Below, piece by piece: positions 8,309 through 34,866 of a DNA stretch of 64,000 nucleotides. Origin of the DNA: Escherichia phage EI-SP-GF; sequence record OR992645.1; one strand, written 5' to 3'. The translations under genes were made by a program, and so were the position numbers. The notes beneath the pieces were generated by a model. That model worked only from the letters and a program-made list of their open reading frames with translations. It was not told the origin of the DNA and searched no databases. Numbering within the stretch: position 1 is the first letter of the stretch; each line of letters starts with the position of its first letter.

Positions 8309-8859
8309 TGGAAGCTTTCGAAAAAGTTTTTTCTGATCTTGAAACAACCATCGCTAAGCTTGTCAAGGTTGCCACAGGAAGAACTGTAGTTCTGGCAGAA
8401 AGCTCTACCATACCGAAGCCGGAAGGTGAGTTTGTACTTTTGCAAACCCTGGCGATCAATCCCACCACTTGGGAAGATAATGAGTTTCAAGATGCGGAGG
8501 GTAATGCTTACGTCACCCACAGTTATACTGTTACTTATCTGTTAACAGCTTATCGCGGCAGGGCATATGCTGCACTTAGCAGAGTATTGCAAGCAATAAA
8601 CCTTCCAATGTTTTATGACAAGTATTTCCCTCTGGGATCGTGCTTTGCCTACTCTAACAATTCAACAATTTCACCTCAAAGGGTGCCGTTGAATAAGCAG
8701 ACGTATGAAAATAGAGCCACCGTAATGCTGACATTTAACGTAAGGTTTGTTGAGACAGACATTGGGGCTTTTGAGGATCTTCAGGGAATTAAGGCTGAAA
8801 TAACCACACACTTCCCTTCACCCAATTCTGGTAAAGCGGTTACAGACAGTGGTCAGTAA
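8308..8859 (+). CDS. tail completion / neck protein (hypothetical)
   Basis: 183-aa ORF, start overlaps previous stop (TGATGG), immediately upstream of sheath-like gene. Confidence 0.45.
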   Translation: MEAFEKVFSDLETTIAKLVKVATGRTVVLAESSTIPKPEGEFVLLQTLAINPTTWEDNEFQDAEGNAYVTHSYTVTYLLTAYRGRAYAALSRVLQAINLPMFYDKYFPLGSCFAYSNNSTISPQRVPLNKQTYENRATVMLTFNVRFVETDIGAFEDLQGIKAEITTHFPSPNSGKAVTDSGQ

Positions 8860-8874
8860 TCGTTATAATTGTGT

Positions 8875-8891
8875 AGTGTAATGATTACACT
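8875..8891 (+). promoter_or_regulatory. perfect 8-bp inverted repeat AGTGTAAT-g-ATTACACT downstream of a TATAAT box (8864-8869)
   Basis: palindrome read directly in the intergenic region before the sheath-like gene; candidate operator or RNA hairpin. Confidence 0.3.
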
Positions 8892-8931
8892 GCGTGTTTG
8901 ATATCCGTGCACAGATATTAAGAGGAAACAA

Positions 8932-10308
8932 ATGCCATATTTAGATAAAGTGGTAGATGTTACAGTTAACCTCGGAACCCAACCTATTGACACTGTAGGT
9001 TTCGAAACTCCCCTGTTCATCGCTATCCACAACAACTTTACTGAGCGAGCTCGCGTATATGCGGAGCTGGATCAGATGGTGGAAGATGGTTTCGCACAAG
9101 GCTCTGCAGCGTATGAGTTTGCAGCAAAAGCTTTTGGTGGTGTATTCCCTCCACAATATGTTATGATCGGCAGACAGGCCAAAGAAAAAACCACTGTAGA
9201 TTTTAAAGGTATTGCTGCCGCAGCTGATACTGATGTCGTAATGACTATTGCAAAAGGTGGCTACAATACCTCTCTGATAGTGCCTATCTCTGGTGGAACA
9301 GGTGCAACTCAGATTGCAGAGTCAATGAAGACTAAAATCGAAGCAGATGATAATTTGGACGGTATCACTGTAGAGGCTGAAGAAGGTGTTATCACCATCA
9401 CTGGTGACTGCACTGTTGGTTATCATACTGGTAACTATACAATCAAAAATATCGCCAATTCTGAAAAACCTTCTACAATAGTTGATAAGATCAATGCTGA
9501 GCGGGACAATTGGTACTTCCTGTGCCATGAAGACCACACCGACATTGAAGCATGTGCTAAGTGGGCTCAGGCCAACTACAAGCTGCACGTCTACTCTACT
9601 GCAGAAGATGTGACTGGCAAAGACAGTAACATCGCTACCAAACTGAAAGCTGCACAATATGACAGTGTTGGCATGTACGATCCTCGTGCAGATAAGGACT
9701 TCCCGGAGGGTGGTATCATAGGTGCTATGGCATCCAACGATCCGTCCTACGGTGACAGCTTGCACTTAAAACAGATGCCAGGTGTGATTGCACCATCTCT
9801 GACTTTAACTCAGCGTATGGCGATTTGGGAAAACCACGTTAACTTCTACAGAATGATTAACGGTGTTGGCGCTTTCTGGGAAGGTAAGTGTGCTTCAGGT
9901 CAGTATGCAGACGCTATTCGTTTTGCACACTGGATCAAGTTCAGATCTGAAGAATCCATGTTTGGGTACATGCATCGCCGCTCCAACATGGGTTTAAGCA
10001 TGAAGATGTCTGATGATGATCTTCCGGTTATCAAGTCTGTTCTGATGAACAACCCGATCAATACTGGCATTAAGAATGGCGCGATCCTGACAGGTTTTGA
10101 CGAAGACAACAATGTGTTCTACGACCCGATCATCACAGTTCCTAAACGTGCAGAGATCCCAACCAATCAGTTGGCTGCTCGTGTTCTGGAAGGTGTGAAA
10201 GTAGAACTGGTGTATAACAACGCCCTGCACTTCGTTCGTATCCGGATCAACGTCCTTCTGGACAAGGTTGGTTCTAAATCCACCAATGCTGTTGCAATGA
10301 CTGAATAA
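8932..10308 (+). CDS. tail sheath-like major tail protein
   Basis: 458-aa ORF followed by a 157-aa tube-sized protein, chaperones and tape measure; baseplate spike/wedge genes downstream support a contractile tail. Confidence 0.5.
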   Translation: MPYLDKVVDVTVNLGTQPIDTVGFETPLFIAIHNNFTERARVYAELDQMVEDGFAQGSAAYEFAAKAFGGVFPPQYVMIGRQAKEKTTVDFKGIAAAADTDVVMTIAKGGYNTSLIVPISGGTGATQIAESMKTKIEADDNLDGITVEAEEGVITITGDCTVGYHTGNYTIKNIANSEKPSTIVDKINAERDNWYFLCHEDHTDIEACAKWAQANYKLHVYSTAEDVTGKDSNIATKLKAAQYDSVGMYDPRADKDFPEGGIIGAMASNDPSYGDSLHLKQMPGVIAPSLTLTQRMAIWENHVNFYRMINGVGAFWEGKCASGQYADAIRFAHWIKFRSEESMFGYMHRRSNMGLSMKMSDDDLPVIKSVLMNNPINTGIKNGAILTGFDEDNNVFYDPIITVPKRAEIPTNQLAARVLEGVKVELVYNNALHFVRIRINVLLDKVGSKSTNAVAMTE

Positions 10309-10318
10309 GGAAGACTAG

Positions 10319-10792
10319 ATGGAAACTCAAATTTTAACTCCTTATGCTTATGACCCTAAAAAGGTCAAACTGTATCTGATGCAGCAGCGTGTCACTGGCT
10401 TCGCTGCTGACACCAAGATCGTTGTTTCAAGAAATGAAGACAACATCTACCCTCACGTTGGTGTGGATGGCGAAATGTCTGCGGCTCTGTCTCGTAACCA
10501 ATCTGGTGTTATGACTGTATCTTTGCAGAACACTTCTGTATGGAACGCCTACCTTTCCGACTGGCAGAAACAGGCATCAATTACTGGTCTGGTATTCTTC
10601 CCTGTTCTGCTGGAAGGTAGCCAGGGCCCTGGTATTGCCACAATCGGTTGGATCCAGAAACAGCCTGACCTGACTTATGGAACCGAAGTAGGTCAGCTGG
10701 ATTGGGATATCGGTATCCTGGATGCATGGCTCAACCGTGACAACATCACTGGTGCTCTCACTGGCCTCGCAGGTCTTGCAGGTATTATCTAA
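10319..10792 (+). CDS. tail tube protein
   Basis: 157-aa ORF between sheath-like gene and tail assembly chaperones, AAGGA RBS. Confidence 0.55.
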   Translation: METQILTPYAYDPKKVKLYLMQQRVTGFAADTKIVVSRNEDNIYPHVGVDGEMSAALSRNQSGVMTVSLQNTSVWNAYLSDWQKQASITGLVFFPVLLEGSQGPGIATIGWIQKQPDLTYGTEVGQLDWDIGILDAWLNRDNITGALTGLAGLAGII

Positions 10793-10810
10793 GAGCACAC
10801 TTCAGCATAA

Positions 10811-10841
10811 GCCTCACCTTCTGGTGGGGCTTTTTGCTTTT
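10811..10841 (+). terminator. rho-independent terminator after tube gene
   Basis: gcctcacc-ttct-ggtggggc stem-loop followed by tttttgctttt. Confidence 0.65.
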
Positions 10842-10882
10842 ATGGTTCTGACACACGTTCTTGAATTGCTTGAAAGGTTAAA

Positions 10883-10911
10883 TTGACAATGCACCATAAT
10901 CATGGTAAAAT
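10883..10911 (+). promoter_or_regulatory. sigma70-like promoter TTGACA-N17-TAAAAT with TGn
   Basis: ttgaca 10883-10888, spacer 17 nt ending tgg, taaaat 10906-10911. Confidence 0.5.
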
Positions 10912-10954
10912 ACACAAATATGGTGCACAACATGACTAATAAGGATGCTATAAA

Positions 10955-11428
10955 ATGGCTATAAACTTTAGACCTACAACAGAGATTGACTTAGCAGGGC
11001 ACAACTTCGTGATCACCCACTGGGGGCCGATGAAGGCAATGAAAAATATGCCTAAGATTGGCAAGATTGTGGCTGTCCCGTTAGGTGCTATCGGTGGATC
11101 TATTATCTCAGGTGGTCAGAATATGGCTGAGGTTCTTCCTACTGCTCTGGCCTACCTGTTCCAGGAGCTTGATGACAACTCTATTGAAGAGTTGTTTAAA
11201 ATCTTGTTCGAAGATATTACTGTAGACGGTGTGGATAGGCTTAATCCAGATGTTGTGTTTGCAGGGCATCTGCTGGAGATGATTAAACTGGCAGGTAAGG
11301 TTCTGGAGGTTAACTACGGCTGTTTTTTCACACAAGACGGTTTAGGAAGCCTTCTGGAGATGTTACAGCAGATGGGTATGATTCAGCAGGTGAACAATCT
11401 GGATCAGACTCCGGAAGAGCAGGAATAA
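10955..11428 (+). CDS. tail assembly chaperone (short form)
   Basis: 157-aa acidic ORF between tube and tape measure genes. Confidence 0.6.
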   Translation: MAINFRPTTEIDLAGHNFVITHWGPMKAMKNMPKIGKIVAVPLGAIGGSIISGGQNMAEVLPTALAYLFQELDDNSIEELFKILFEDITVDGVDRLNPDVVFAGHLLEMIKLAGKVLEVNYGCFFTQDGLGSLLEMLQQMGMIQQVNNLDQTPEEQE

Positions 11429-21187: not shown

Positions 21188-24100
21188 ATGGCTGATATTA
21201 AAGTTGTCAGAATTGAATCTCTTCCTGCCACTACCGCAGTGACAGAGGATGATTACCTGGTTGTTCAACAACCAGACCTGACCCGTCGTGTAAAAATTGG
21301 CGATGTTGTCCATGTGGATGGGACTGTTTCTCATGTAATCTCCTTTAAGGAAGGTGGTAAGTTAAACGGCCCAATGGATTTTGCCTACTTCGAAGAGGAA
21401 GATCTATACCTGCGTTGGAAAGGCGAATTTCCACACACTGTCCCTGCACTGTCTTCACCATATTCTGACGGTGGTATTACTGACGCTGCGTGGATGGTAT
21501 ATACAGATCCGTCCTTAAGGGAGGAGCTGGAGTCTACCATTGGCGCATCTATGATCATGACAGCCGAAGGGCAGTCTGTCCAAGATGTAATGGATGTTAC
21601 TGTTCAGACAGCCAACGATGCTAAAGCACTTGCACAGCGGGTAGATTTTGGCACAGTGCATACTGTAGGCGATGTTATTCACCTTGTCAACTTTGTTGGT
21701 CCTGCAGTTATTGAAGAGGGAAGAACTACTAACTACCCTTCTGAAGCGGCGGGTGAAAAATTTCTGAACGGTGTGGTATCTCGTCGTGATACTACAACTG
21801 TTGATGGCATTTTCCGTGGCGCTACCTCCGGAGCCATGTATACCATTGCAGTAACCAACGGTGTAGCAACAACAAAAAGAATAGCACTTCGTGACGAATT
21901 TAAACGCCTGGAGGCAAACAACCCAACAAGAACAGTTATCCGTGCCGGAGATGATTTAAACACAGCAGGGTACTTGCAGCTTGATGCAACAGGCCGTTGG
22001 GGTATGTGGAACCAACAAACAGCTTCGTGGCAACCTCTTGCTATAGAGCAAGGCGGCACAGGGGCCAGAGATGCCGCAGGTGCACGCATTAATTTAGGGG
22101 CTTTCTATAAGCAACGTGCAGCCCTTGAGTCAAATTTTAATATCAATAACTTGACTGGTAATCAGGATGGTATATACTACCAGCCGATGACTGCTTATGC
22201 AACTGAGGCAAATGGTTACCCTGCAGGTTCTGGTGCTGGTCACTTGATTGTCTGGCAGAACAATGCTAACGGCGGTACAGGTTGTCGTCAGGAATACTAT
22301 CCATTCTCTAACGTAGATGTTTGGTATTTGAGAACCTATCAGGCCAACACAAATCAGTGGACTGCATGGCAGCCAATGGTCAGACCCCGTAACGATGAGA
22401 CCTTTAGATCGCACATCGGTCTTGGGTCTAGGAATTCTCCTACCTTCGGGCACCTTTACCTGTCTCAAAGCTCGGCTGATGTTAAGTCGGCATCAGGTAT
22501 TGTTAACGGGGACAAATACAGCGCTGACGGTGTCCTTGAGCATGGGTATAGGATCTACTCTGAGGTAAGAAACGACAATAAGGCTTGGTTGACAATCCAC
22601 CTGCACAAAGGCGCAAAAGGATCTGAAACTCATAGATATTTAGGCTTCCGCGAGGATGGGGTCTTAGATTGTCCTAAATATATGCAGGTTGGTGATCTGA
22701 ACGGTCAGCTGGCAAACTGGGGACTTGGAGAATGGATCCGCAGTTCAGGAGCAGAAAGAGGTTTCTGGGGATCTAAGAAAGCCGCCAAGATGGTTATCTG
22801 GGATGGCGGTATGGACGAGCAAGGTGAAGGAACGCTTGAGTGGGGTGTTTATAACAACCGGAAAGCCAAATGGGAACCACTACCGATAGCTTGTGGTGGT
22901 ACCAGTGCCAGGACTGTAGGGGATGCTCAAGCACAATTCAGAATCCCTCTGGCATCAGGCGCTAGACCATATGTAAACCTGCCTAGAACTGCAGCTATGC
23001 AGGACGGTAAGTATTATCCTATTATCGTCAGAACTGACCCCAACTTTGCAGCAACTATCGGGACAGATTTAACCATTGTCACCAGATCTTCTTCTGGCGG
23101 CGACCCAATGAACTGTGCTACACTACAGTGTCACTACAGAACTGGTGGCTGGACAGACAGAGGTGATTCTTTCCAAGGGGTTATTAATTTCTACCAAAAC
23201 GAGAGAGCAATCCTCGGATGTGTATCTCCAACCAGAGGTAAGCAGGAGTATGTTGCATTCTATGTAGAGGCACGTGCATTCCCTGTTACAGTATATGCTG
23301 GCGCTACTGTAATAGAAGTGTCAACCAGGGAGGCTGATTGGCAAGTAGGCAACGTGACAGGTAACCAAGATGGTGTCAAGTTCTGTGCTCCTCTGGAATC
23401 TGCAGATTTGAGTCTTGCAATCAAAGGTGATGATGTAACAAACACCAGACCTCTGGTTGAGTTCAAAGGAACATCAGGTTTCTACACTGGTGGTGGAACT
23501 ATGTGGCACTACCTGGGGACTCCTGAACGCTATGCAGTGATGAGCAAAACGAACATGCCTAAAGTCGAGCTGTGGGCAGACGGTCTTGACTATTTGTGCT
23601 ACGGCGGTCCTAGAAAGGCATTATTCTCTAACGCGGGATTCCAGTGTGCATCTGACGGAACAGAGGATCTAACTAACGGCACGTTTACCTCTAAATGTGG
23701 TAATGGTGCTGGCCTTAAAGGCCAAGCAGAGTTCAGGTCTACTCCAGAAGCTGGTCAAGTTATTGTTCGAGATGTTGTGGGAACAGCTCATAGATTCTAC
23801 AACTTCAACAAAGATGGTACTTTCTCAGCCCCAGGTGGTTTTGTATGTCATACTGGTGGAGACTGGAACAACCAGTTCGGGCCTAATAACCCGTCAAAAA
23901 TAATGGCTGGCAACGTCAACGGACCAGAAGGTTCGATGGTTGTTGGTGGGTTGTCTGTGGCGTTTTCTGGAAACTATGCCTTCCAAATGGCTGGTCGCCT
24001 TGATCAGTTATACACCAGATCTATTGAGGGTGGTAACCACAGGGCGTGGAACAAAGTTATTCAGCACCGTGGTCAAGGTCTGGGGACAGAAGACCTTAAT

Positions 24101-24994
24101 GCCTACGATGGTAGCCGTGAAGGTTTCTATCACCAAGGTTCAAACGCTGACGCACTTGTAATAGATCGCCACTACCCTGCTCCGTACGCTGGTACACTGC
24201 TTGTTTACAAAAACACAGCTAACAGACCTCAAGGTTGTGTGCAGGAATATATCACCTATTTTGGTGACAGATATACTCGTGCTGGTAACTACGTTGGCGA
24301 TGTCTTTACTTGGGAAGAATGGAGACACGATGCTGGTAAAGGCATTCAGTTAAGACCTAATTACACTTTTGGTGAAACCAGTAATCAACTGGAAATTCAT
24401 GTCGGTGCTAATAGTCTTTCTAGCAACGCCGATAACTTACCTACCAATACAGGTAGAATGTTCTATTGGGGTAACGCAGACAGGAAGAACGTGCTTGAGT
24501 TTCAGGTAAACGACAACGCTGCATCTGCTAGCTGGGTATTCCACTGTGGCACTAGGTCAGACGAGGCTAAGTCAAGATATTTTGCTGTCAACGGTGTAGT
24601 AGAGTGCACCACTGTGAGCCAGAGCTCTGATAGAGACCTGAAGGACAATATAGAGGTTATTCCTAACGCGCTGGAAGCTATCCGTAAGATGAAGGGCTAT
24701 ACCTACACTTTAAAAGAGAATGGTATGCCTCACGCGGGGGTAATTGCTCAAGAGGTCATGGAAGCATTGCCAGAGGCAGTAGGGTCTTTCGTGAAAAGGA
24801 AGGAAATCCCAAACCCTGATCAAGATGGAACTCCTTTGATAACAGAAGAAAGGTTCTATAACGTTGACTACGCAGCTGTAACAGGCTTGCTTGTCCAGGT
24901 TTGCAGGGAACAGGACGATAAAATAACCGCCCTTGAGGAGCAGGTTAAAAAATTGACAGAGGTTGTTACTGGGTTGCAAGAGAAACTGAAGTAA
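21188..24994 (+). CDS. tail fibre/tailspike with C-terminal intramolecular chaperone (peptidase S74-like)
   Basis: 1268 aa; N-terminal anchor domain; GGTGARDAAGARINLG and GGTSARTVGD fibre motifs; C-terminus SDRDLKDNIEVIPNALEAIRKMKGYTYTL...GVIAQEVMEALPEAV matches S74 autoproteolytic chaperone signature. Confidence 0.75.
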   Translation: MADIKVVRIESLPATTAVTEDDYLVVQQPDLTRRVKIGDVVHVDGTVSHVISFKEGGKLNGPMDFAYFEEEDLYLRWKGEFPHTVPALSSPYSDGGITDAAWMVYTDPSLREELESTIGASMIMTAEGQSVQDVMDVTVQTANDAKALAQRVDFGTVHTVGDVIHLVNFVGPAVIEEGRTTNYPSEAAGEKFLNGVVSRRDTTTVDGIFRGATSGAMYTIAVTNGVATTKRIALRDEFKRLEANNPTRTVIRAGDDLNTAGYLQLDATGRWGMWNQQTASWQPLAIEQGGTGARDAAGARINLGAFYKQRAALESNFNINNLTGNQDGIYYQPMTAYATEANGYPAGSGAGHLIVWQNNANGGTGCRQEYYPFSNVDVWYLRTYQANTNQWTAWQPMVRPRNDETFRSHIGLGSRNSPTFGHLYLSQSSADVKSASGIVNGDKYSADGVLEHGYRIYSEVRNDNKAWLTIHLHKGAKGSETHRYLGFREDGVLDCPKYMQVGDLNGQLANWGLGEWIRSSGAERGFWGSKKAAKMVIWDGGMDEQGEGTLEWGVYNNRKAKWEPLPIACGGTSARTVGDAQAQFRIPLASGARPYVNLPRTAAMQDGKYYPIIVRTDPNFAATIGTDLTIVTRSSSGGDPMNCATLQCHYRTGGWTDRGDSFQGVINFYQNERAILGCVSPTRGKQEYVAFYVEARAFPVTVYAGATVIEVSTREADWQVGNVTGNQDGVKFCAPLESADLSLAIKGDDVTNTRPLVEFKGTSGFYTGGGTMWHYLGTPERYAVMSKTNMPKVELWADGLDYLCYGGPRKALFSNAGFQCASDGTEDLTNGTFTSKCGNGAGLKGQAEFRSTPEAGQVIVRDVVGTAHRFYNFNKDGTFSAPGGFVCHTGGDWNNQFGPNNPSKIMAGNVNGPEGSMVVGGLSVAFSGNYAFQMAGRLDQLYTRSIEGGNHRAWNKVIQHRGQGLGTEDLNAYDGSREGFYHQGSNADALVIDRHYPAPYAGTLLVYKNTANRPQGCVQEYITYFGDRYTRAGNYVGDVFTWEEWRHDAGKGIQLRPNYTFGETSNQLEIHVGANSLSSNADNLPTNTGRMFYWGNADRKNVLEFQVNDNAASASWVFHCGTRSDEAKSRYFAVNGVVECTTVSQSSDRDLKDNIEVIPNALEAIRKMKGYTYTLKENGMPHAGVIAQEVMEALPEAVGSFVKRKEIPNPDQDGTPLITEERFYNVDYAAVTGLLVQVCREQDDKITALEEQVKKLTEVVTGLQEKLK

Positions 24995-25093: not shown

Positions 25094-25684
25094 ATGTTTT
25101 TATGGGAAAGGCCTAGATACCTTCCAGATATTAGATTGGAGCTGCTGGCAGATATTGTTACGTTTAAAAGTCCGTTTACAGGTAAAACGCAAAAAGTGAC
25201 CTATGCCACACCTAACTGGAAAGGCACTTTGACGGTTTCCAATATCAGCGAGTCACAGTTGCTAGAGCTTAAGAGCTTTGTTGATCAGGTGTATAAAGAC
25301 GGGAACATTTTTCTTATTAAAACGTACGGTCACTCAGTAACAGCTAATGAGCCAATCGCCCTTGGGCCTACCGGTAACGACGATTTTTTGAAGACGGTCG
25401 GATGGGAGCCAAACAGAGACATAGCCAGAGCTGGGGATAAAATATCTGTTAACGATGAATTGAAAGTGGTAACAGCTCCAGTGCGCAGCGATGGTGTTGG
25501 GTCTGCTGTTATAAGCATATCTCCAAGACTTAGAAAACCTATTGCCGCAGGGGACACTATGAAGATAATAACTCAATCCCCAAAGGGTAGGTTTCATATC
25601 AGAGATATTTATAAAATTAAGCAAAAAGTCGATGCTATGCAAAAAGGTGATAATATAGTTATCAACTTCTTTGAGGATTTCTAA
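25094..25684 (+). CDS. tail tip assembly protein (lambda gpM / GTA g12 position, tentative)
   Basis: 196-aa ORF with GGAGG RBS, first gene of a four-gene run ending in the lambda J-like protein. Confidence 0.4.
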   Translation: MFLWERPRYLPDIRLELLADIVTFKSPFTGKTQKVTYATPNWKGTLTVSNISESQLLELKSFVDQVYKDGNIFLIKTYGHSVTANEPIALGPTGNDDFLKTVGWEPNRDIARAGDKISVNDELKVVTAPVRSDGVGSAVISISPRLRKPIAAGDTMKIITQSPKGRFHIRDIYKIKQKVDAMQKGDNIVINFFEDF

Positions 25685-25685
25685 G

Positions 25686-26237
25686 ATGATTAGAGCGCCA
25701 TTAGATAATTTATTTCTTGAAAAGCTGGAGCTTGATAGTGTTGAGATCTTAATTGCTGCAAAGCTAGAGCTACCAACAGGGACTGTCAGGGTGTGCTCAG
25801 GAACTGGTGTTGTGGTGATTGAGGGGCAACATTTTATAGGGATAGGTGGATCAGCAACATTGACTGCTGTGTCTGAGAAAGATGCTACCAACTTCGGATC
25901 TGTGGTAGCAACATTGAACGGATTTGATCCCAAGTATGTAGGTGATCTGCTGAAGACAGAGTATTCGGGTTGTCGTGCCACGTTGTATATCACAGCTATG
26001 GAGAATGGTTTACCTGTTACAACCAATGGCTTGTTTGACGGCCTTATAACAGACATGGCTATTCAGACAGGGGAGAATAGTGCTTTGTCCATATCCATAT
26101 CTTCCATCTTCAACAGCTGGTTAAGAGGTTTTCCTTATCGATACACAGAGGAGAGCCATAGCTCAAGAAACGATAATGACAGATTTTTTAAATATGTGGA
26201 TCAGGTGGCAAGCCGCCCGATCATTTGGGAGGTTTAA
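25686..26237 (+). CDS. tail tip protein (lambda gpL / GTA g13 position, tentative)
   Basis: ORF frame opens 25671; ATG 25686 follows upstream stop; position-based call. Confidence 0.4.
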   Translation: MIRAPLDNLFLEKLELDSVEILIAAKLELPTGTVRVCSGTGVVVIEGQHFIGIGGSATLTAVSEKDATNFGSVVATLNGFDPKYVGDLLKTEYSGCRATLYITAMENGLPVTTNGLFDGLITDMAIQTGENSALSISISSIFNSWLRGFPYRYTEESHSSRNDNDRFFKYVDQVASRPIIWEV

Positions 26238-26662
26238 TGAGCACACACCCTCGTTTAGTAGACTGGCAAGAAAGATTGTGGAAAGTGTTTGACGAAGAAG
26301 CTACCGTCCAGTTTGAATGGGGATTCCACGATTGTTGCACTTTTGCGGCTAAATGTGTTGATGCCCAATATGGAACAGATTTTCTTTCTAACTTTGAAGG
26401 AACGTATAAAACAGAGTTGGAAAGCAAGAGATGGTGCATGCTCCGTTTCAAAACCACCCACCTGCCTACTATTTTTGATCTCTTTTTGACTCGACTGGAT
26501 ACTCCTAAACAGGTTCAGCGTGGCGATATTGTTATTTTCGAAGGTCTGAACGGGCTCACCGCTGGTGTGTTCTGGAACAACCAGATTTGGGCGAAAGGTG
26601 ATAAGGGGATCTTTATGTTCGACATGAAAGATTCTATCGTTGTTGATGTCTGGAGGTATTAA
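26237..26662 (+). CDS. NlpC/P60-like tail tip protein (lambda gpK C-domain / GTA g14-like)
   Basis: EWGFHDCCTFAAKCV (Cys-containing motif) and RGDIVIFEG; catalytic His not evident; located directly upstream of J-like gene. Confidence 0.4.
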   Translation: MSTHPRLVDWQERLWKVFDEEATVQFEWGFHDCCTFAAKCVDAQYGTDFLSNFEGTYKTELESKRWCMLRFKTTHLPTIFDLFLTRLDTPKQVQRGDIVIFEGLNGLTAGVFWNNQIWAKGDKGIFMFDMKDSIVVDVWRY

Positions 26663-29600
26663 TGCCAATTGCAATGATTGATAACATCGTTGCTTCTGCA
26701 AGATCTTCGAGCTATGACTGGAACGCATCCAAGGCAGCTCTGGCTGACAGCCTGAACACTGTTACCACCAGAACCCTGGATAAGATTTTCGAAGGTAACA
26801 AATCTTACAGAAGTCAGCAAGATAGACAAAAGCTTCTCAGATCTTCTGCTGCACCTTGCTCTGTAGTGTATGGGAAGACACGCACATCTGGATTGCTTGC
26901 GTTTTTGGAGCAGGACAGGGACAGAACCCTTCATTGTGCTATTGTTCTTGCCAATCATCCCTTGGAAGGTATAGAAGATATACTTATCGACGGTAATCCT
27001 ATTTCCTCGTATGGGGATTTGGTATCGTGGGAGTTACATAACGACAGGAAAACCTCTGATCCTTTCATGGGTACACACTGCCCTTCGTGGTCACCAGACA
27101 TGATAGGTAGAGGGATCAGTTGGCTACGTGCCAGCTTTAAGTTTGACCCTAACAAGTTTCCTTTTGGGTTGCCAAACGTTACACTCGTCAAGGTTGGTAA
27201 AAAATGTTATGATCCTCGTATCAGTAAAGAGGTGTATACCAATAACGCTGCCTTGGTGATTCTGGACTACCTAAGAACGTACCTTAAATGTCCTGACGAA
27301 ACCATCAACTGGGAGTCCTTCAAGGAAGCTGCCAACATATGCGATGAGGCTGTAAAAAACGCGGACGGAACCAGTGAGCGCCGTTACACCATTAATGGCG
27401 AGTTCGACATGGATGAAGCACCAGCAAGCATTATGGCAGAGATGCTGAAAGCTTGTGGTGCAGACCTTAGCTATGTAGCTGGCAAATATGGTCTGCTGGT
27501 AGGTGCATACTATGGCCCGGCAACAATGACACTTAGCGAGAACTGTGTTTGCGGTGAGGTTAAGATCTATCCTGAAGCCTCCTTCGACAAAAGATCCAAC
27601 ACAATAACTGGCAGATTCACTAGTCCGGCCAAAGGGTATTCTGAAACAGATTTTCCATCAGTGTTTGTCCCAGAGTGGGTAGAGAAGGATGGAGAAAGAA
27701 AGATAATCGATATAGATTATCGCTTTGTTACCAGTCCTTATCAAGCTCAGCGTGTTTCTGCAATCTTCTTAAGACGTGCCAGAGCTGGTAGGATTATTGA
27801 AGTAACCTGCAATATGCGGGGTTTTAAATTTAAGCCTGGGCGTTACGTTACGATGGACCTCCCAAGTATTGGTATAGTGGGCCAAGAAATGAGGGTTCTT
27901 GAATGGGAGTTCACCAAAAAGGGCGGTGTCAAGGTAAAACTCCGTCAAGATGCTAAAGAGTGGAATGATGCCACAGGGCAACTTCCGGATTCTGGAGATG
28001 TGGATATTCCGATATCCCCGTCCGGCGTAGCTCAACCGCAAAACTTCAGATACTCTGTTCTTCAAGCTGGGGAAGTAACTCATGGTGTTTTGGCTTGGGA
28101 CAACGTTGGAACTTATGCTCAAAATATTGTGCAGGTAAGAAAGAACGGAGAGATTATTTGGACAGCACAGACAGTTGAGCAGTTTGTCCGCGTAGAAGGA
28201 TTGACCAAAGGGTCATACACAGCAACCGTGGTTGCAACATCTTATAAAGGTGGTGTATCTCCAGAAGCTTACTGCGAGTTTAACATTCAAGCACCTGAAG
28301 CTCCTGTTTCTGTAGAAGTTAAGCAGGGATACTTTGCTATCACCTTGATTCCGCACAGCAGGGACTTAGCAAGTGTAAGCACCCAGTATGATTTTTGGAC
28401 ATCTGGTATGACAAGGTTGCCGGACACAAGTGATGCAACCGTTACTTCAAAAGCCACCCGTATGGGTGTTGGTTCAACTTGGACATCTGAAGGTCTGCAG
28501 AACGATAAGATTTATTATTGGTATATTCGAACCACAAACGCTTTTGGTAGTTCTCAGTTTGTAGAATGCGCTGCACGCTGCTACACCTCTATTGAAGATT
28601 TGATGCCTCAGATAGATGCTGAATTTAAAAAGACAGAAACTTATAAAGAGTTGATGAGCACTTTAGATTCCTCTATCGAGGAGGTTGAAAATCGTGTCAC
28701 AGAGCTTAACAAGTACATGGACGGAAGGGTAGATGAGGCATTCCAACAACTTGGAGATAGGATAGGTGCGGTAGTTGCAGAGACAACTCAGAAGTTTGAG
28801 GATGTCAATGGTAATATCACAGCTCTGGATAGGAAACTTGTTGCTGCACAGAACAAGTTCACCAACGATCTGAACACTGAAAGTGGAAGACTGGCATCCC
28901 TGATCGAGACAACCAATAAAGCAACCACTGATCTTCTGAACAAAAAGACAGAGGCTTTAGACGAGAAATTGGTTGCAGCCAAAGGGGAGTTGGTAGAACA
29001 AATAAGTGGTGTGGAGAGCGGATACCTTGCCGGAGATAAAACTCTAGATGGCAAGATCAATACCCAGAGAACGGAACTTGATGCAAGCATCTTAAGCACC
29101 AACCAGGCGACAGTGGATCTTCTCAACAGGACATCTGAAACTTTGGATCAAAAGATCAGTCAGACAAACGCGACGGTATCTAAGAACTATACCACCCTTG
29201 ATGGTAAGATAACTACCGCAAAAACTGATCTCAATACCTTGATTGCCAATACCAACAAGGCCACCACAGATTTGTTGAATCAGAAAACCTCTGCACTGTC
29301 GGAGCAGATAACTTCTGCACGTGGAGAAATTTCTACCAACAAACAGGCGATTAAGGATTTGGATGGTAAGCTGACCTCCACAAAAACAGCACTGGACGCT
29401 ACAATCTCCGATACCAACAAAGCAACCGTGGATCTTATTAACGGCACAGCGTCAGCTATTCGTCAAGAACTTGCTGTTGCTAAGCAGGAGATCATTGATG
29501 ATGTCGGTGATGTGTCAGAGCTTAGAGCTGCAGTAGCTACAACATCTAAGGCTGTGACAGACTTAGAGGGCAAAGTAACTGCTCAATGGGGCACAAAAAT

Positions 29601-30501
29601 ACAGGTAGACTCCGCAGGGAATAAGTATGTGGCAGGTATCCAATTGGGCATGGAAGGCTCTGGAGGCCAAGTTCAATCATACTTCATGGTTAGTGCAAAC
29701 AACTTTGCGGTATACAACCCCGGAAATGGAACAGCAACCCTTGCTTTCGCAATCAAGAACAACCAAGCATTCTTGAAAGATGCTTTTATAGAGAACGGGA
29801 CGATCTCTTCTGCCAAGATTGCACAAGAAATTTCGTCTAACAACTACGATGGCAACGGGTACCATAAATACGGTTGGTATATTAACAAGAACGGACACGC
29901 CCAGTTTATGGATGTGTGGGTGAAAGGTAACATCAACGCTAGTGCAGGTAACTTCACAGGGGCAGTTAACGCTACCAGTGGCACTTTCCGTGGGGATGTT
30001 TATGCCAATAATGGTAGCTTTAGAGGCACCATAGATGCAACAGGAGGTACATTCCGTGGACGTGTAGAAGCTTCCGTTATCCGTGCTAACCAGTTCGAAG
30101 GTGCAATCGTTGCACATAGGACCTATGGTGACTGTCCTCCGGTATATAACTCGCAGCAGAGGGTTTGCCGTTGGAGGTGGAGATATGTGGACAACGTTTC
30201 AGGGCAAGGTAAGAACGTAACATTCTTCTTTAAACTAAACGGAACCTTGTCTGGCTCCCAGCTCAACGTTTGGATAGCCGGACATCAAATCCTTGCAGGT
30301 AAGAAGTACGGAAACGACAACAACGGCATGTGTGCGGTAGGGATAACTGGTCTCGGTGAACAAACCATAGACATTATCGTCGAGATATACACACCATGGT
30401 CAACGTCAAGCGTGACAGGAGTTACAATATCTTGTCCAACCGTAATAGTTAGTCGTTCAAACTCTAGCTTCCAGGGACCTTGGAACGAGTCTCATGACTA
30501 A
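26662..30501 (+). CDS. lambda gpJ-like host specificity / central tail fibre protein
   Basis: 1279 aa; FN3-region motifs PEAPVSVEVKQGYFAITLIPH...FW...YYWYIRTTNAFGSSQFVE and VQSYFMVSANNFAVYNPGNG...NNQAFLKDAFI closely parallel lambda J ([21 protein letters not shown]...YYFYIRSVNTVGKSAFVE; LSQFLVAANRIAFIDPANG). Confidence 0.8.
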   Translation: MPIAMIDNIVASARSSSYDWNASKAALADSLNTVTTRTLDKIFEGNKSYRSQQDRQKLLRSSAAPCSVVYGKTRTSGLLAFLEQDRDRTLHCAIVLANHPLEGIEDILIDGNPISSYGDLVSWELHNDRKTSDPFMGTHCPSWSPDMIGRGISWLRASFKFDPNKFPFGLPNVTLVKVGKKCYDPRISKEVYTNNAALVILDYLRTYLKCPDETINWESFKEAANICDEAVKNADGTSERRYTINGEFDMDEAPASIMAEMLKACGADLSYVAGKYGLLVGAYYGPATMTLSENCVCGEVKIYPEASFDKRSNTITGRFTSPAKGYSETDFPSVFVPEWVEKDGERKIIDIDYRFVTSPYQAQRVSAIFLRRARAGRIIEVTCNMRGFKFKPGRYVTMDLPSIGIVGQEMRVLEWEFTKKGGVKVKLRQDAKEWNDATGQLPDSGDVDIPISPSGVAQPQNFRYSVLQAGEVTHGVLAWDNVGTYAQNIVQVRKNGEIIWTAQTVEQFVRVEGLTKGSYTATVVATSYKGGVSPEAYCEFNIQAPEAPVSVEVKQGYFAITLIPHSRDLASVSTQYDFWTSGMTRLPDTSDATVTSKATRMGVGSTWTSEGLQNDKIYYWYIRTTNAFGSSQFVECAARCYTSIEDLMPQIDAEFKKTETYKELMSTLDSSIEEVENRVTELNKYMDGRVDEAFQQLGDRIGAVVAETTQKFEDVNGNITALDRKLVAAQNKFTNDLNTESGRLASLIETTNKATTDLLNKKTEALDEKLVAAKGELVEQISGVESGYLAGDKTLDGKINTQRTELDASILSTNQATVDLLNRTSETLDQKISQTNATVSKNYTTLDGKITTAKTDLNTLIANTNKATTDLLNQKTSALSEQITSARGEISTNKQAIKDLDGKLTSTKTALDATISDTNKATVDLINGTASAIRQELAVAKQEIIDDVGDVSELRAAVATTSKAVTDLEGKVTAQWGTKIQVDSAGNKYVAGIQLGMEGSGGQVQSYFMVSANNFAVYNPGNGTATLAFAIKNNQAFLKDAFIENGTISSAKIAQEISSNNYDGNGYHKYGWYINKNGHAQFMDVWVKGNINASAGNFTGAVNATSGTFRGDVYANNGSFRGTIDATGGTFRGRVEASVIRANQFEGAIVAHRTYGDCPPVYNSQQRVCRWRWRYVDNVSGQGKNVTFFFKLNGTLSGSQLNVWIAGHQILAGKKYGNDNNGMCAVGITGLGEQTIDIIVEIYTPWSTSSVTGVTISCPTVIVSRSNSSFQGPWNESHD
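28860..29480 (+). repeat. in-frame tandem repeat region encoding repeated T-x-NKATTDLLN-x-KT/ TLDGKI coiled-coil units inside the J-like gene
   Basis: protein segments TNKATTDLLNKKTEALDEK / TNQATVDLLNRTSETLDQK / TNKATTDLLNQKTSALSEQ / TNKATVDLINGTASAIRQE recur about every 40 aa. Confidence 0.5.
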
Positions 30502-30507
30502 CAGTAA

Positions 30508-30536
30508 AGCCCCGCTTCGGCGGGGTTTATTTTTAT
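30508..30536 (+). terminator. rho-independent terminator (UUCG-loop hairpin)
   Basis: gccccgc-ttcg-gcggggt followed by ttatttttat. Confidence 0.7.
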
Positions 30537-30543
30537 GCTCAGA

Positions 30544-30572
30544 TTGACTATTGTTACAAAATTTGGTAAAAT
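30544..30572 (+). promoter_or_regulatory. sigma70-like promoter TTGACT-N17-TAAAAT with TGn
   Basis: ttgact 30544-30549, spacer 17 nt ending tgg, taaaat 30567-30572. Confidence 0.5.
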
Positions 30573-30605
30573 ACCTTGTAGAGATTTTCATACCGGAGGA
30601 GTGAC

Positions 30606-32096
30606 GTGGCTAAGTATGGATTGACAGAGGCTGGTTTCGTTATACCAACCCTAAATGACCTAATCGTTGAAACTAAGCAAAGCCTGATCCGTGCTTTTGG
30701 CGAAAACTTCAACGTACAGAGTAACTCCGTTGCAGATAAGCTGACCACTATCTTCAACGAGCGAGAGTATCAACTTATTCTTATGGCAGCATCTGTATAC
30801 GCATCGCAGACGCTGTATGGGGCAGAAGGTATTTACCTGGATGAGCTTCTTGGAAGACAGGGTATTTACCGAAGAGGCCGTTCTAAATCATCAGGTACCT
30901 GCCAGTTGACAATCAACACAACTGTGCCGTACAATATGATTTATGATTCCAAAACTTATACGCTGGACAGTGGCAACTTTGTTCTTAGCAACGATGTGCA
31001 GGTGGCGGGAAATCTTATTGCTCACAGAATAAACGCTCCAGACCTAAGAATTGGGAAATACAACTTTCAAATTACCAACCAGACAGACGGAAGTATCAAA
31101 ACAAAAAGTCTGGTTTTAACAGATAAGGCTCTGGACTCTTCTGATTTGCCAAGCTTTTACGGCGAGATTAAGCAATTCATTGTCGATAATACAACCCTGC
31201 TGAATGATGATTTAATTCAGATAGATATGTTGACAGGGACGTTGTGGATAGGGTACAATTCGAATCTTGATCAAGTTGGACTTAATAGCAGGGTAGATTT
31301 CAGAGTATCCCCGATTGTAGGGGAAAGAACTATCACCCTAGATGTTATCGCTAACGAGGCTGGTGAGCTGTCAAGAGAGGCAGAAACCGTGACAACAATG
31401 TCACCTACTCCCAGTGGATTTATCAAGCTTACCAACCGAGAAAGATTCAATGAGGGTAGGGATGTTGAGAAAGACTCTGAGTATCGCTTAAGAGCTTCCA
31501 GCACTAAACAGCTGACATCTAAAGCTACCCGTCCTGCAATCCTTAGCGCTGTAAGCGAGGTGAAAGGTGTTGAGAAAGTAAGAGTGTTCTCCAACAACAC
31601 CGATAAAACGGATGCGAAAGGTATACCACCTTATAAGTTTCAAGTGGTGGTGTTTGGTGGTGCAACAGAGGATATCTGTCAGGCGCTGTATCAAACCATA
31701 GCTTGCACAAACAGAACTTATGGGAATATCTTCTACGATATTACCACATCAGACGGTCAGACTGAAAGGATTTATTACTCCAAGGCAAATACCTACCGCC
31801 TAGATGTAAGAATTACCTACTCAGGTGCTGCGCTTTCCACAACCGAAAAAGATGCCATTGTAGAGGCTCTTTTACAGGTTGTTAACGGACTGGATGTTGC
31901 AGATACGTTGTACAATATCCAATTGGTTGGTGCTGCATCAGCTGCTGTGTCAATAGGCAGATTTAACAGACTTGTGATTCAAGTAAAACCTGTGGGAGCC
32001 TCTGATGAAGCTTACACTACAAACGATATTGTTGCAAACATGACTGAGGTGTTTGACCTAGACGAAAGTAATATAACTTTCCAACAAACTATTTAA
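30606..32096 (+). CDS. baseplate J-like wedge protein (P2 gpJ / T4 gp6 family, tentative)
   Basis: 496 aa, GTG start with GGAGG RBS; C-terminal half shows the same pattern as P2 gpJ (alternating hydrophobic strands, ...YNIQLVGAA...); followed by gpI-like gene. Confidence 0.45.
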   Translation: MAKYGLTEAGFVIPTLNDLIVETKQSLIRAFGENFNVQSNSVADKLTTIFNEREYQLILMAASVYASQTLYGAEGIYLDELLGRQGIYRRGRSKSSGTCQLTINTTVPYNMIYDSKTYTLDSGNFVLSNDVQVAGNLIAHRINAPDLRIGKYNFQITNQTDGSIKTKSLVLTDKALDSSDLPSFYGEIKQFIVDNTTLLNDDLIQIDMLTGTLWIGYNSNLDQVGLNSRVDFRVSPIVGERTITLDVIANEAGELSREAETVTTMSPTPSGFIKLTNRERFNEGRDVEKDSEYRLRASSTKQLTSKATRPAILSAVSEVKGVEKVRVFSNNTDKTDAKGIPPYKFQVVVFGGATEDICQALYQTIACTNRTYGNIFYDITTSDGQTERIYYSKANTYRLDVRITYSGAALSTTEKDAIVEALLQVVNGLDVADTLYNIQLVGAASAAVSIGRFNRLVIQVKPVGASDEAYTTNDIVANMTEVFDLDESNITFQQTI

Positions 32097-32107: not shown

Positions 32108-32794
32108 ATGGCAGAGATTAAGTCGGATGTCAACCACATCCACACTCTGCCAGATTTTGTTCAGGGAGGTCTTGATTACCTGCCTGGAGATTTTCTGGCT
32201 GAGAAGGTTAATTTAGTCACATTCTTAACCGTGTACCTTAAAAGGTTGGAGGATGTTGATAAAATGCTGGTAGGCTTGGCTGAAGGAAGATTGCTTAACA
32301 ATGCCAGCGGGAGATACCTTGACGAAGTTGGTAATCAACTCGGTATTCTTCGGAATGGGCTTTCAGATGCGGATTTTCGTGCTACCCTGGTTATTCAGCA
32401 AGCAGCAGCATCAAGGGGTGGGACTCGCGAAGATGTCATCTCCACCTTGCGACAATTGTTCGGAAGAGACAATTTCGATACGTGGAAAGGTGACAATTTC
32501 AGGTTTGACATAAACATTAGAAAAACTTGCTTTGACATATTGCAGTCTATCGACCAGATCTTAGATATGCTGCCATTGCCTTGTCATTTGCGTCTTACGG
32601 AGTCGCAAGGGCAAGCTTTTGGTTTTGAAGGGGACTCTACAGCTCTCGGCTTCGGATCAGTGTGGGAAGAAAACCAGTTCGGGGTTGGTGGGCTGGCTAC
32701 TTTGTTATATGTTCCTGACGTAAGACCTGATTGGGATACCACAACTATTTATTGTGAAAGTATTACAGTAAACGCAACTAGACAGGAGGGTTAA
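32108..32794 (+). CDS. baseplate wedge protein (P2 gpI-like, tentative)
   Basis: 228-aa ORF immediately after baseplate J-like gene. Confidence 0.4.
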   Translation: MAEIKSDVNHIHTLPDFVQGGLDYLPGDFLAEKVNLVTFLTVYLKRLEDVDKMLVGLAEGRLLNNASGRYLDEVGNQLGILRNGLSDADFRATLVIQQAAASRGGTREDVISTLRQLFGRDNFDTWKGDNFRFDINIRKTCFDILQSIDQILDMLPLPCHLRLTESQGQAFGFEGDSTALGFGSVWEENQFGVGGLATLLYVPDVRPDWDTTTIYCESITVNATRQEG

Positions 32795-34866
32795 TGGCAA
32801 CAGCTGTTTTTAAACCTTACCGTGATTACTCTACAATGGCTGCACGGTTTCATTACCGCACAGTTCAGGATACTGCAGTTCCGGGTAGGGATTATGATCA
32901 TGTTGAGGGCGATGTAACTATCCCGGTTGGGGCAACCAGTATTGAGATCCCTGTAGAAATTGTTGACAAATTGCCAAACAGGTTGCCAAGAAGCTTCTTT
33001 ATGGAGTTTTCATCAAACTCCCAAGGGGTTATGATTGGAACACAAAGAGCGAAATGTACAATAGTTTCAGATGAGAATCTTGACAGAATATCTTGGGATA
33101 CCGTTGAGGAGAGAATGTTTCACCCAAGATACTGGGTTACAACCACACAGCAGACTGAAAGCACCTGTATTGTTGCGGATAATAACTGCTGTATTAACCG
33201 TTTAGTGTCAAGAACATATGGGGGCATGGCTGGGTGCATTTGGGAAACAGTTGACAAGTATGACCATTTCGGCATTGGATTTGATGATCACTACGAGATG
33301 AGAAACACCAAGCTTTGGTTCAGAATGTCAATAACCAATGCCAGCAACTTCTCCACCCCTGAAAAGATGATTATGACTGTAGACCTTGTTGATGGTACAA
33401 TCATCTATGTTCCTTTAGCTCAATATGCTGTCAGCATCTCAGAGGATAAGAATGTTGCAGAAATTCATATTGATTTCGAGGACTGCGTCGGGATGGACCA
33501 GAACAACAACATGATGGGTGTTGATCCTCGGCAGGTGAGAAGGATTCTAATACCACTTATGCCTAAAGATTGGGTAGGTAATAGCACAGACCCGAGAACG
33601 GAAAATGTAGAGTGTGAGTTGCGTCTAGATCTTCTTCAGCCGGACACAGGCTGGAAAATGATGCAACTTAACAATATTCAGGTGAAAGAACACGATGTTG
33701 GGATCTGCACAGCATATGACGATATGTGGAACGTATCCCCTTTAAGGGTGTTGAGCAATATCAAGCGTCTGGGCTATACAGGAACCATAAACCATTATGT
33801 TGGTATGAGCCATTATTATGACTACACATGGTCAGGAACCCAATGGTCTATAAACAAAACAGGAGCTCTAAACGCTGCAGCTTATAAATGGCATGATGAT
33901 TTTATGTACAATGCCAAACGACATGACTTCGACGTTATGCAGTCTGTAAGCTTTGAGCTTTATAGCGATGCCTGTCCGTTGGAATGGACCCAGAGAGACT
34001 GGAACGATAACTATGCTAAAACAGGCTATACGCCTTGTAGTTACCTCCTGTCTCCAACCATTGAAGAGGGCATGAATTTCCTTACTGCAGTATTTAAGAA
34101 TTTTGCATCAGCCGCTATGAGAAACAACCTGCCAGTGATTATGCAGATTGGTGAACCGTGGTGGTGGTTCAATACCGATACTCGTAAGCCTTGTATTTAT
34201 GACTACCCTACAAAGCAGGCGTTTTATGATGAGACTGGTGAATATGCACTAGACATTGGGACTATTGACGATCCTAAAACTGGCGGTGTTTATGACAAGT
34301 ATGTAGCATTTTGTCGTGGTAAGCTTGGCGCTCGTATTGCAGCCATTTCAAAGGCAATAAAAGCACACGCTGCATCGGCTCAGATGACAGCTTTACTGTT
34401 TTTCCCCACTATTATGGAAACCGAGCTTACGCAAAAACTGAACCTTGCTGACCAATATAAAAAGGAAGCAGGTGCTCTTGATTTCTTCTGCACTGAGTGC
34501 TACGATTGGGTGATGCAGGGAGGTATTGAAAAGGCAAAAGAGTCTGTAAACATACCTATCGTTAAGTTAGGTTGGAAACCGTCTGAAATACAATACCTTG
34601 CAGGGTTCGTTCCTAGCAAAGAGCTTGCTCCGGTATATGGCTACGACCCAACCAGGAATTACCAAGAATTTTTATGGAGATGTATTTGCGGAAACATGGC
34701 AACCATAGAGTATAGATACCCTGAGGTAAAACAGTATGTGTGGGCATACCCGCAAGTAATGTCTGACAGCATCACTGTTACCGCCAGAGATTCTACTGTT
34801 CTGCATATGGGGCAGGTTGCTCTGAAAGGGTATGTAGAAGATGTTGTTCCGCCAGACTTCTCATAA
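32794..34866 (+). CDS. tail-associated protein with N-terminal Calx-beta-like domain and large C-terminal domain (possible glycoside hydrolase / TIM-barrel)
   Basis: N-terminus VPGRDYDHVEGDVTIPVGATSIEIPVEIVD resembles Calx-beta motif; C-terminal region Trp-rich (GEPWWWF); enzymatic role is inference. Confidence 0.45.
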   Translation: MATAVFKPYRDYSTMAARFHYRTVQDTAVPGRDYDHVEGDVTIPVGATSIEIPVEIVDKLPNRLPRSFFMEFSSNSQGVMIGTQRAKCTIVSDENLDRISWDTVEERMFHPRYWVTTTQQTESTCIVADNNCCINRLVSRTYGGMAGCIWETVDKYDHFGIGFDDHYEMRNTKLWFRMSITNASNFSTPEKMIMTVDLVDGTIIYVPLAQYAVSISEDKNVAEIHIDFEDCVGMDQNNNMMGVDPRQVRRILIPLMPKDWVGNSTDPRTENVECELRLDLLQPDTGWKMMQLNNIQVKEHDVGICTAYDDMWNVSPLRVLSNIKRLGYTGTINHYVGMSHYYDYTWSGTQWSINKTGALNAAAYKWHDDFMYNAKRHDFDVMQSVSFELYSDACPLEWTQRDWNDNYAKTGYTPCSYLLSPTIEEGMNFLTAVFKNFASAAMRNNLPVIMQIGEPWWWFNTDTRKPCIYDYPTKQAFYDETGEYALDIGTIDDPKTGGVYDKYVAFCRGKLGARIAAISKAIKAHAASAQMTALLFFPTIMETELTQKLNLADQYKKEAGALDFFCTECYDWVMQGGIEKAKESVNIPIVKLGWKPSEIQYLAGFVPSKELAPVYGYDPTRNYQEFLWRCICGNMATIEYRYPEVKQYVWAYPQVMSDSITVTARDSTVLHMGQVALKGYVEDVVPPDFS

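Follow-up and report, generated by a model that had tools for sequence, protein, structure and literature searches.

The 64,000-nucleotide (nt) stretch of Escherichia phage EI-SP-GF that we analysed (OR992645.1; hereafter the window) comes from an rV5/FV3-like myovirus (Vequintavirus) and carries a gene for a protein resembling J, the central tail fibre protein of phage lambda. Between its immunoglobulin (Ig)-like domains and its tip domain, this protein has a long predicted α-helical shaft containing an array of tandem repeat units, and our results suggest that the shaft is probably a trimeric coiled-coil spacer in which the number of units sets the reach of the fibre. The repeats had been noticed in an initial annotation made from the DNA letters, and they are confirmed here. 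The interpretation given at that time was mostly right, and the novelty that it claimed relative to lambda was overstated.

The array consists of five full tandem units, R0 to R4, followed by a degenerate junction copy, R5, which agrees with the proposal of at least five repeats of about 40 amino acids (aa). The interval first proposed, 28860-29480, falls inside the array and misses both of its ends (Table 1). The canonical unit, which is unmodified in other alleles, is 44 aa long and can be read as four 11-residue blocks. The motif T[NS][KQ]A[TV][TV]DL recurs at residues 751, 813, 864, 918, and 961 (window 28912, 29098, 29251, 29413, and 29542), and the motif [TD]L[DE]GK at residues 794, 845, 899, and 967. 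In pairwise Smith-Waterman comparisons, units R1-R4 scored 7-20 standard deviations above composition-preserving shuffles, none of the 500 shuffles scored as high, and R1 against R3 reached a score of 128 (z=19.8). R0 is homologous to R1 (z=6.5) and to the 44-aa unit 2 of phage A140 (z=11.5), while R5 matched R1-R3 at z=3.5-4.3. The R5 motif is conserved across the family, including the siphoviruses Seurat and BRET and many other representatives. Consistent with this, a windowed self dot-plot of the protein gave offsets of 51, 54, 62, 105, 113, and 167 aa, each of which beat the best of 100 shuffles. The units are 36-67% identical to each other over their first 33 aa.

The periodicity that a dot-plot was expected to reveal is therefore significant in the protein, whereas in the DNA it is faint. 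Tandem Repeats Finder (TRF) returned 0 rows for window 27500-31000 at a minimum score of 30, indicating that the repeat exists at the protein level only. A DNA-level repeat search found a single family of 30-nt seeds with 70-80% identity and spacings of 186, 153, and 162 nt, and paralogous units share 43-65% of their nucleotides.

Table 1. Positions of the repeat units, the shaft, the flanking domains and the upstream genes in the window.
Feature	Position	Strand	Residues	Remarks
Three genes upstream of the J-like gene	25094..26662	+		196 aa (Dit-like), 188 aa, 145 aa (DUF6950)
Lambda-J-like central-fibre protein gene	26662..30501	+		1279 aa; from the list of open reading frames; orthologue of rV5 gp37
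Two Ig/FN3-like domains	28138..28617	+	493-652	N-terminal boundary of the shaft; Pfam and lambda J alignment
Whole predicted α-helical shaft	28552..29589	+	631-976	346 residues; AlphaFold 2
Repeat array R0-R4	28780-29541	+	707-960	five full tandem units of 44, 62, 51, 54, and 43 aa
R0	28780..28911	+	707-750	44 aa; TNKAT signature degenerated
R1	28912..29097	+	751-812	62 aa; holds an 18-aa Gly-rich insert
Possible helix break or kink in R1	29017..29040	+	786-793	GYLAGDKT; single-sequence AlphaFold 2 only
R2	29098..29250	+	813-863	51 aa
R3	29251..29412	+	864-917	54 aa
R4	29413..29541	+	918-960	43 aa
Junction copy R5, degenerate	29542..29586	+	961-975	TSKAVTDLEGKVTAQ; connects the shaft with the prism
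Tail-tip fibre (β-prism) domain	29530..29952	+	957-1097	Pfam PF09327 Phage_Tail_Tip, E=2.9e-38
C-terminal region, probable receptor-binding head	29953..30498	+	1098-1279	suggested by the position in lambda J

Structure prediction points to a helical shaft. AlphaFold 2 (AF2), run on the single sequence of residues 620-1100, gave helices at 631-657, 659-785, 794-949, and 951-976 with a predicted local distance difference test score (pLDDT) of 60-75. When run with a multiple sequence alignment (MSA) of 35 sequences, it gave one continuous helix over residues 752-948, with pLDDT mostly above 90, and β-strands at residues 956-984 that join the tip domain. Both models are of the monomer, and the MSA is shallow over the repeats: the profile search for a deep alignment yielded only 35 proteins, mostly partial. 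The two models differ in R1, where residues 786-793 are non-helical in the single-sequence model and helical in the MSA model, so that a kink is uncertain. Glycines occur at residues 783, 787, and 791 of the R1 insert, and the insert is missing from the four-unit allele described below. The composition of the shaft is in keeping with a helix, with one proline in 346 residues and none in the repeats, 13.6% threonine, and abundant alanine and leucine. If straight, a helix of this length would measure about 52 nm (0.15 nm per residue).

The predicted helix has a single hydrophobic face. The hydrophobic period of residues 751-960 peaked at 3.60 residues (z=14.3) and was coherent over all 210 residues, and the other alleles gave 3.6-3.67. 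Of the 48 residues that are I, L, M, F, or V, 41 fall within one half of the helical wheel. Since the unit lengths of 44, 62, 51, 54, and 43 residues are all near whole numbers of 3.6-residue turns, the hydrophobic stripe stays in phase from unit to unit. The 3.5-residue signal of a canonical heptad was looked for in the repeats and was absent (z=-1.0). The coiled coil first proposed thus holds as a predicted helix with one hydrophobic face, and not as a canonical heptad repeat. Such an amphipathic helix with one continuous face would suit a near-straight bundle of mixed heptads and hendecads better than a canonical left-handed coiled coil, and by analogy with the homologues in lambda, T1, and the pyocins the bundle would be a trimer.

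The regions on both sides of the shaft are homologous to lambda J, and they confirm that the repeats sit between an FN3-like (fibronectin type III-like) region and a J-like domain. Pfam identified Ig_J (PF24421) at residues 493-545, Ig_J_second (PF24489) at residues 547-652 (E=1.4e-30), and Phage_Tail_Tip (PF09327) at residues 957-1097; the two Ig/FN3-like domains (493-652) align with lambda J residues 666-808. The arrangement of two Ig-like domains followed by a β-prism is supported by both Pfam and the fold match, and a predicted helical shaft lies between the second FN3-like domain and the prism, as in the published definition of such fibres (PMC11101478). Homology to a J-type hub is indicated by PHROG 31, "central tail fiber J" (E=9e-163, residues 143-1123), and by 54% identity with Seurat J over residues 48-758; no hub model was matched in the Pfam scan of the protein. 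A search of the PDB matched lambda J chains at E=2e-27, and in a Foldseek search with the MSA-based model the best matches were the lambda central tail fibre in its open, post-binding state (8XCJ/8XCI, E=1e-8). Pfam matches to Apolipoprotein, SF-assemblin, Fib_alpha, and DUF1664, a match to the P22 gp26 needle, and the old "Omp-alpha" annotation were also considered; all are below the cut-off and reflect helical composition rather than homology.

Alignment with lambda J gave two blocks, residues 497-684 with J 666-850 and residues 958-1115 with J 845-990, leaving about 273 residues with no lambda counterpart exactly where lambda has its own α-helical shaft. That shaft (J residues 809-861, 53 residues) forms a three-helix bundle between the second FN3 domain and the β-prism of the central straight fibre (PDB 8IYK, 8XCI; PMC11101478). 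The statement in the initial annotation that lambda J lacks a fibrous segment is therefore incorrect, and because lambda J already has a shaft at the same place, the roughly 273 additional residues represent an expansion of an existing element and not a novel insertion. Besides the homologous flanks, the two proteins share the end of the shaft, where the final 15-20 residues align with the part of lambda J that turns from helix into strand; lambda J 845-861 aligns with the junction copy R5. The differences are that the present shaft is about 6.5 times longer (346 against 53 residues), that it has five or six tandem units where lambda has none, and that it is encoded by a myovirus, lambda being a siphovirus.

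Other members of the family show how widely this part of the fibre varies. In 69 family representatives with both domains, the spacer from the last Ig domain to the tip domain ranged from 46 to 2485 aa, with lengths of 46-49 (lambda type), 77, 103, 135, 249, 329, 431, and up to 2485 aa. The closest relatives outside Vequintavirus are the central fibre J proteins of Seurat and BRET (Queuovirinae; 1040 and 874 aa), which are 50-54% identical over the hub, Ig, and tip domains and belong to the four-gene module described below; their shafts, of 113 and 78 residues, contain no full unit and retain the junction motif. The F-type pyocin central fibres (F2 PyoF10, PDB 25vf; F7 CFP) also have a long helical shaft directly upstream of a PF09327-type prism (PMC13455828, PMC12874032), exceptionally long in the solved three-stranded coiled coil (PMC13455828). 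The strand number is presumably the same here, and residues 872-1078 align weakly with residues 986-1184 of the F2 pyocin fibre, 872-957 covering the coiled-coil region. In contrast, the unit sequence differs from that of the pyocins, and the repeats show no clear F7 fold-switch motif. Side-fibre docking and fold switching are features of the pyocins, while the shaft described here is known from sequence and prediction.

Tandem repeats also occur in other J-like proteins. T1 gp33, which has a long distal α/β fibre (PDB 9L9P; PMC11945409), and the E. coli prophage DUF1983 proteins are J-like, have a long helical region before the tip domain, and contain tandem repeats there (ETEALSREIDQLKAQIGDDIQASLTDIRE in T1; about 33 aa per unit in P0270), whose units are unrelated in sequence to the TNKATTDL unit. 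P0270, P0272, P0209, and T1 gp33 each carry their own repeats, about 28-33 aa long, where the helical region precedes PF09327. A scan of 20 representatives with long spacers did not detect the TNKATTDL unit in any of them. As other J-like proteins have their own, different tandem units, repeat-built shafts seem to have arisen independently several times in this family, judging from the sequences. In addition, in the RBPseg atlas, which modelled the fibres of BASEL phages with AlphaFold-multimer, the passages on classes TC5 and TC3/4/9 cover J-like fibres whose coiled coils vary in length, and one Vequintavirinae fibre is described as combining a central-fibre-like N-terminus, a large coiled-coil domain, and a β-helical C-terminus (PMC12143355). 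Its identity with the present protein could not be confirmed from that description, which makes no mention of a 44-aa repeat, an allele series, or cassette-like divergence. Long coiled coils in J-like fibres are thus already published, and what is described here is a known element in a lineage-specific form built from repeats.

Copy number differs among Vequintavirus phages, as the comparison called for by the initial annotation bears out. It was determined by tblastn against phage genomes followed by direct alignment. Three alleles were found: the JLBYU08/Murica type (1199 aa, 3600 nt) with three TNKAT-type units plus R0 (four units), the window/rV5 type (1279 aa, 3840 nt) with four plus R0 (five), and the A140/ECML-10/NHEP1 type (1381 aa, 4146 nt) with six plus R0 (seven). 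Matches to the gene at 93-97% DNA identity occur in 116 records from rV5/FV3-like phages, which are Vequintavirus myoviruses with genomes of about 136 kb, and the genes of FV3 and S127 are 96-97% identical. Among the full-length matches listed from these records, only the three gene lengths occur, except that a few records are truncated or deviate by 1-11 nt; the lengths of 3600, 3840, and 4146 nt account for roughly 43, 55, and 16 records, as estimated from identity bands rather than counted. A scan of IMG/VR gave just three loci: two have the window-type allele and one has the long allele. The first homologue search had shown no such variation because it returned only proteins 98-100% identical to the query (119 of the closest 120 exactly 1279 aa long and one of 1277 aa), and the variation appeared with tblastn against phage genomes.

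The differences between the alleles are concentrated in the shaft. The N-terminal 1.9 kb of the gene, about 1.7-2.1 kb upstream of it, and 3 kb downstream are 93-95% identical in DNA between the three alleles, and the C-terminal 0.9 kb of the gene is 89-93% identical. The shaft (window 28552-29589 against records L002 and L003) is 72-82% identical or cannot be aligned by blastn. The last unit is closer, with R4 91% identical in DNA to its orthologue in A140. Between the window and A140, the synonymous divergence (dS) was 1.93, which is saturated, in the four orthologous units, compared with 0.28 over the first 630 codons and 0.60 for the C-terminal part, and the ratio of nonsynonymous to synonymous divergence (dN/dS) in these units was 0.06. 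Within the allele class of the window (against AlexBoehm), dN/dS of the repeats was 0.04. With nearly identical flanks, saturated divergence in the shaft, and low dN/dS, the sequences indicate that the shaft is a cassette with sharp boundaries that is far older than the regions around it, has been exchanged by recombination, and is under purifying selection. Among close homologues, the C-terminal region (1098-1279) has the largest share of variable columns (15%) and a high dS. The divergence between alleles lies mainly in the shaft, and the presumed receptor-binding C-terminus is more conserved, the reverse of the usual pattern in host-range proteins.

The suggestion that repeat number varies by recombination therefore holds in the sense of cassette exchange, the variation consisting, on this sequence evidence, of old, discrete alleles. 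A different process would be a hypermutable contingency locus, in which slippage or unequal crossing-over between nearly identical DNA repeats would often alter the copy number. The difference in copy number between relatives would fit it, but the copies are far too diverged in their DNA for slippage-type variation to be ongoing, the closest proteins are nearly uniform in length, the full-length matches listed fall almost entirely into three gene lengths, and synonymous divergence between alleles is saturated. On the TRF result, the low DNA identity of the units, and the saturated dS, this candidate was rejected, and we give it almost no credence.

Taken together, these results favour a helical spacer that is modular and probably trimeric. 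The shaft has probably been lengthened from about 50 residues, as in lambda, or 80-115, as in the closest siphoviral relatives, to about 346 by tandem duplication of a helical unit of about 44 residues, which itself probably derives from the segment just upstream of the β-prism. By analogy with lambda J, T1 gp33, and the F-type pyocin, three chains would pack their single hydrophobic stripes into a nearly straight, three-stranded coiled coil of about 50 nm, holding the distal β-prism and the binding head at the C-terminus at a distance from the hub domains at the N-terminus. Reach would then be set by unit number, at about 40, 52, and 67 nm for the cassettes of four, five, and seven units.

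Several observations weigh against the spacer. The lack of a canonical 3.5-residue signal, together with only two hydrophobic positions per 11 residues, means that the packing may be unusual, and the structure prediction covers the monomer only. The strength of purifying selection (dN/dS of 0.04-0.06) and a threonine content of 16% seem to exceed what a passive spacer would need. The genome is that of a myovirus with its own hub and spike, which bears on the position in the virion that we infer for the protein. Furthermore, in the cryo-EM of two Vequintavirinae phages, as reported in the passages of PMC12143355 that deal with them, density was seen for only 3 of 9 annotated fibres.

The shaft might alternatively be a fold-switch spring or retractable tether, that is, a metastable coiled coil that zips into β-prism layers on binding, so that the 50-nm shaft shortens by tens of nanometres and pulls the particle to the cell, with the number of units setting the stroke. 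In the F7 pyocin central fibre, a trimeric coiled coil of 163 residues becomes a β-prism on contact with the cell or receptor, and similar switches have been predicted for many siphophage fibres (PMC12874032). The repeats are at the corresponding position, directly N-terminal to a PF09327 prism (as defined in PMC12874032), and residues 872-957 align, if weakly, with the F2 coiled-coil region. Moreover, residues 958-974 align with lambda J 841-861, which changes from helix to strand upon LamB binding (PMC11101478), and the junction at residues 951-984 (window 29512-29613) is a helix (951-976) in the single-sequence model and a β-hairpin (strands within 956-984) with the MSA, the MSA model being the one that best matches the open lambda fibre. 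Each unit also opens with a copy of the junction motif, the repeat N-termini TNKATTDLLNKKT resembling the junction TSKAVTDLEGKVT at z=3.5-4.3; the canonical unit equals 4 x 11 residues, and F7 strands have an 11-residue motif. The high content of threonine, alanine, and serine and the strong purifying selection would suit a switch as well.

The change of state between the two AF2 runs, however, is confined to residues 951-984, and the single-sequence helix at 951-976 has a pLDDT of only about 50. Even with the MSA, the repeats remained helical (752-948) at pLDDT above 90, although as a fold-switch test the comparison of deep and shallow predictions is weak over the repeats because the alignment consists of 35 mostly partial proteins. 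Full matches to SxSxxMxxLxS, the published F7 motif with one copy per 11-residue strand, cluster at residues 763-783 and 921-974 and showed no enrichment in the repeats (5, with 3.6 +/- 1.8 in shuffled sequences). Matches at 4 or more of its 5 specified positions were mildly in excess (39, with 29 +/- 4 in shuffled sequences; p about 0.01), for which helical periodicity could by itself account. No 2-residue hydrophobic period was found, and a contractile-tailed phage needs no such energy source. We therefore regard a fold-switching shaft as unlikely, though it is the alternative to which we give most weight. A more specific version, a modular switch on an accessory fibre in which receptor binding zips the 40-67 nm coiled coil unit by unit and reels the baseplate to the outer membrane, is slightly less likely again. 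If it were true, the cassettes of four, five, and seven units would be alternative stroke lengths for surface glycans of different thickness, and the fold-switch principle of the pyocins would extend from non-contractile tails to a myovirus.

The units might instead be sites at which other trimeric fibres dock, as parts of a Vequintavirus adsorption apparatus with many fibres. In the F-type pyocin, PyoF13 side-fibre trimers bind at the G955 kink of the long helical shaft (PMC13455828), and the Gly-rich insert of R1 (GVESGYLAGDK) is non-helical in one AF2 model; many fibres are encoded at the locus, and the shaft sequence is under purifying selection. Against this, the insert is lacking in the four-unit allele and helical in the MSA-based model, and no partner was identified. 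Because the units differ greatly from each other, they would not be equivalent docking sites, and the neighbouring genes are 94-95% identical across the shaft alleles, giving no sign of co-varying partners next door. A docking platform thus appears improbable, more so than the fold switch.

The spacer remains our preferred reading, and its gene belongs to a siphovirus-type tail-tip module. The J-like gene is the last of a block of four (window 25094-30501, and 6271-10970 of record L004) that is collinear with Seurat gp16-gp19 and 32-54% identical. The 196-, 188-, and 145-aa proteins correspond in gene order to Seurat gp16, gp17, and gp18, with identities of 32%, 40%, and 44%, and the 145-aa protein matches PF22262 (DUF6950, E=3e-33). 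The Seurat module runs distal tail protein, tail protein, gp18, and J, and the J-like gene here likewise follows those for distal tail, hub-2, and K-like proteins. The module is located between lateral-fibre and wedge genes in a genome with a full myoviral set of sheath, tube, tape measure, hub, spike, and wedge. With a contractile tail, the J-like protein would not be a trimer that closes the tip of a non-contractile tube, encoded downstream of the tape measure of that tail. In a tblastn search with the 188-aa protein, 117 of 264 matches were at least 95% identical, 147 were below 60%, and none lay at 60-95%. Among the 40 matches listed of these 264, those of high identity were all in Vequintavirus and those of low identity all in phages of 30-84 kb, none outside Vequintavirus being in a phage larger than about 84 kb. 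The cryo-EM baseplate model of phi92 includes no J-like protein or component of a siphovirus-type module.

The orthologue in rV5, gp37 (1279 aa), is among the largest rV5 proteins and was detected in virions by mass spectrometry (PMC3606486), and thin fibres of 70 nm are mentioned for rV5 micrographs in that paper. Depositors have named the gene tail fiber protein, central tail fiber J, tip attachment protein J, lateral tail fiber protein with fibronectin type III domain, and Omp-alpha precursor. Antisense open reading frames (ORFs) of 112-146 aa occur inside it at 28788-29126, 27769-28122, and 29677-30117 on the minus strand; one overlaps R0-R2, and there is no sign that they are genes. Upstream, at window 21188-24994, is a fibre gene for a 1268-aa protein with Tail_spike_N and a C-terminal Peptidase_S74 chaperone domain, near rV5 gp41 (1272 aa) in size. 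Its counterpart in JLBYU08 has a greater length (4440 nt) and an additional ORF of 110 aa after it, which suggests that this neighbouring fibre also has alleles; similarity of the window to JLBYU08 ends about 1.7 kb upstream of J. At window 32794-34866, on the downstream side of the wedge genes, a 690-aa protein matches the Pfam "Non-contractile tail sheath protein" N-terminal and TIM-barrel domains together with Calx-beta; the AlexBoehm annotation calls it a lateral tail fibre carrying glycosidase and deacetylase domains. In addition, 18 "Campylobacter phage" records (L003 and other MG0656xx; UNVERIFIED, host C. jejuni) contain a J-like gene 92-100% identical to that of E. coli Vequintavirus, and one of them, A116, a record of 59.5 kb, also has the gene for the 188-aa module protein (99% identity). 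Their labels or assemblies appear to be unreliable.

The feature is a clear if unexceptional example of a modular fibre whose length varies. Shaft length is the most variable dimension of the J-like fibre family, from 46 to about 2,500 residues, and in Vequintavirus the variation can be read as whole units (four, five, and seven) in otherwise near-identical phages, with flanks 93-95% identical. That it affects the shaft and not the binding head reverses what is usual for host-range proteins, and the gene draws attention to a complete siphovirus-type tail-tip module inside a myovirus. The three alleles form a natural isogenic series for the effect of fibre reach on adsorption through O-antigen or capsule layers, and the unit offers a defined module for engineering fibre length.

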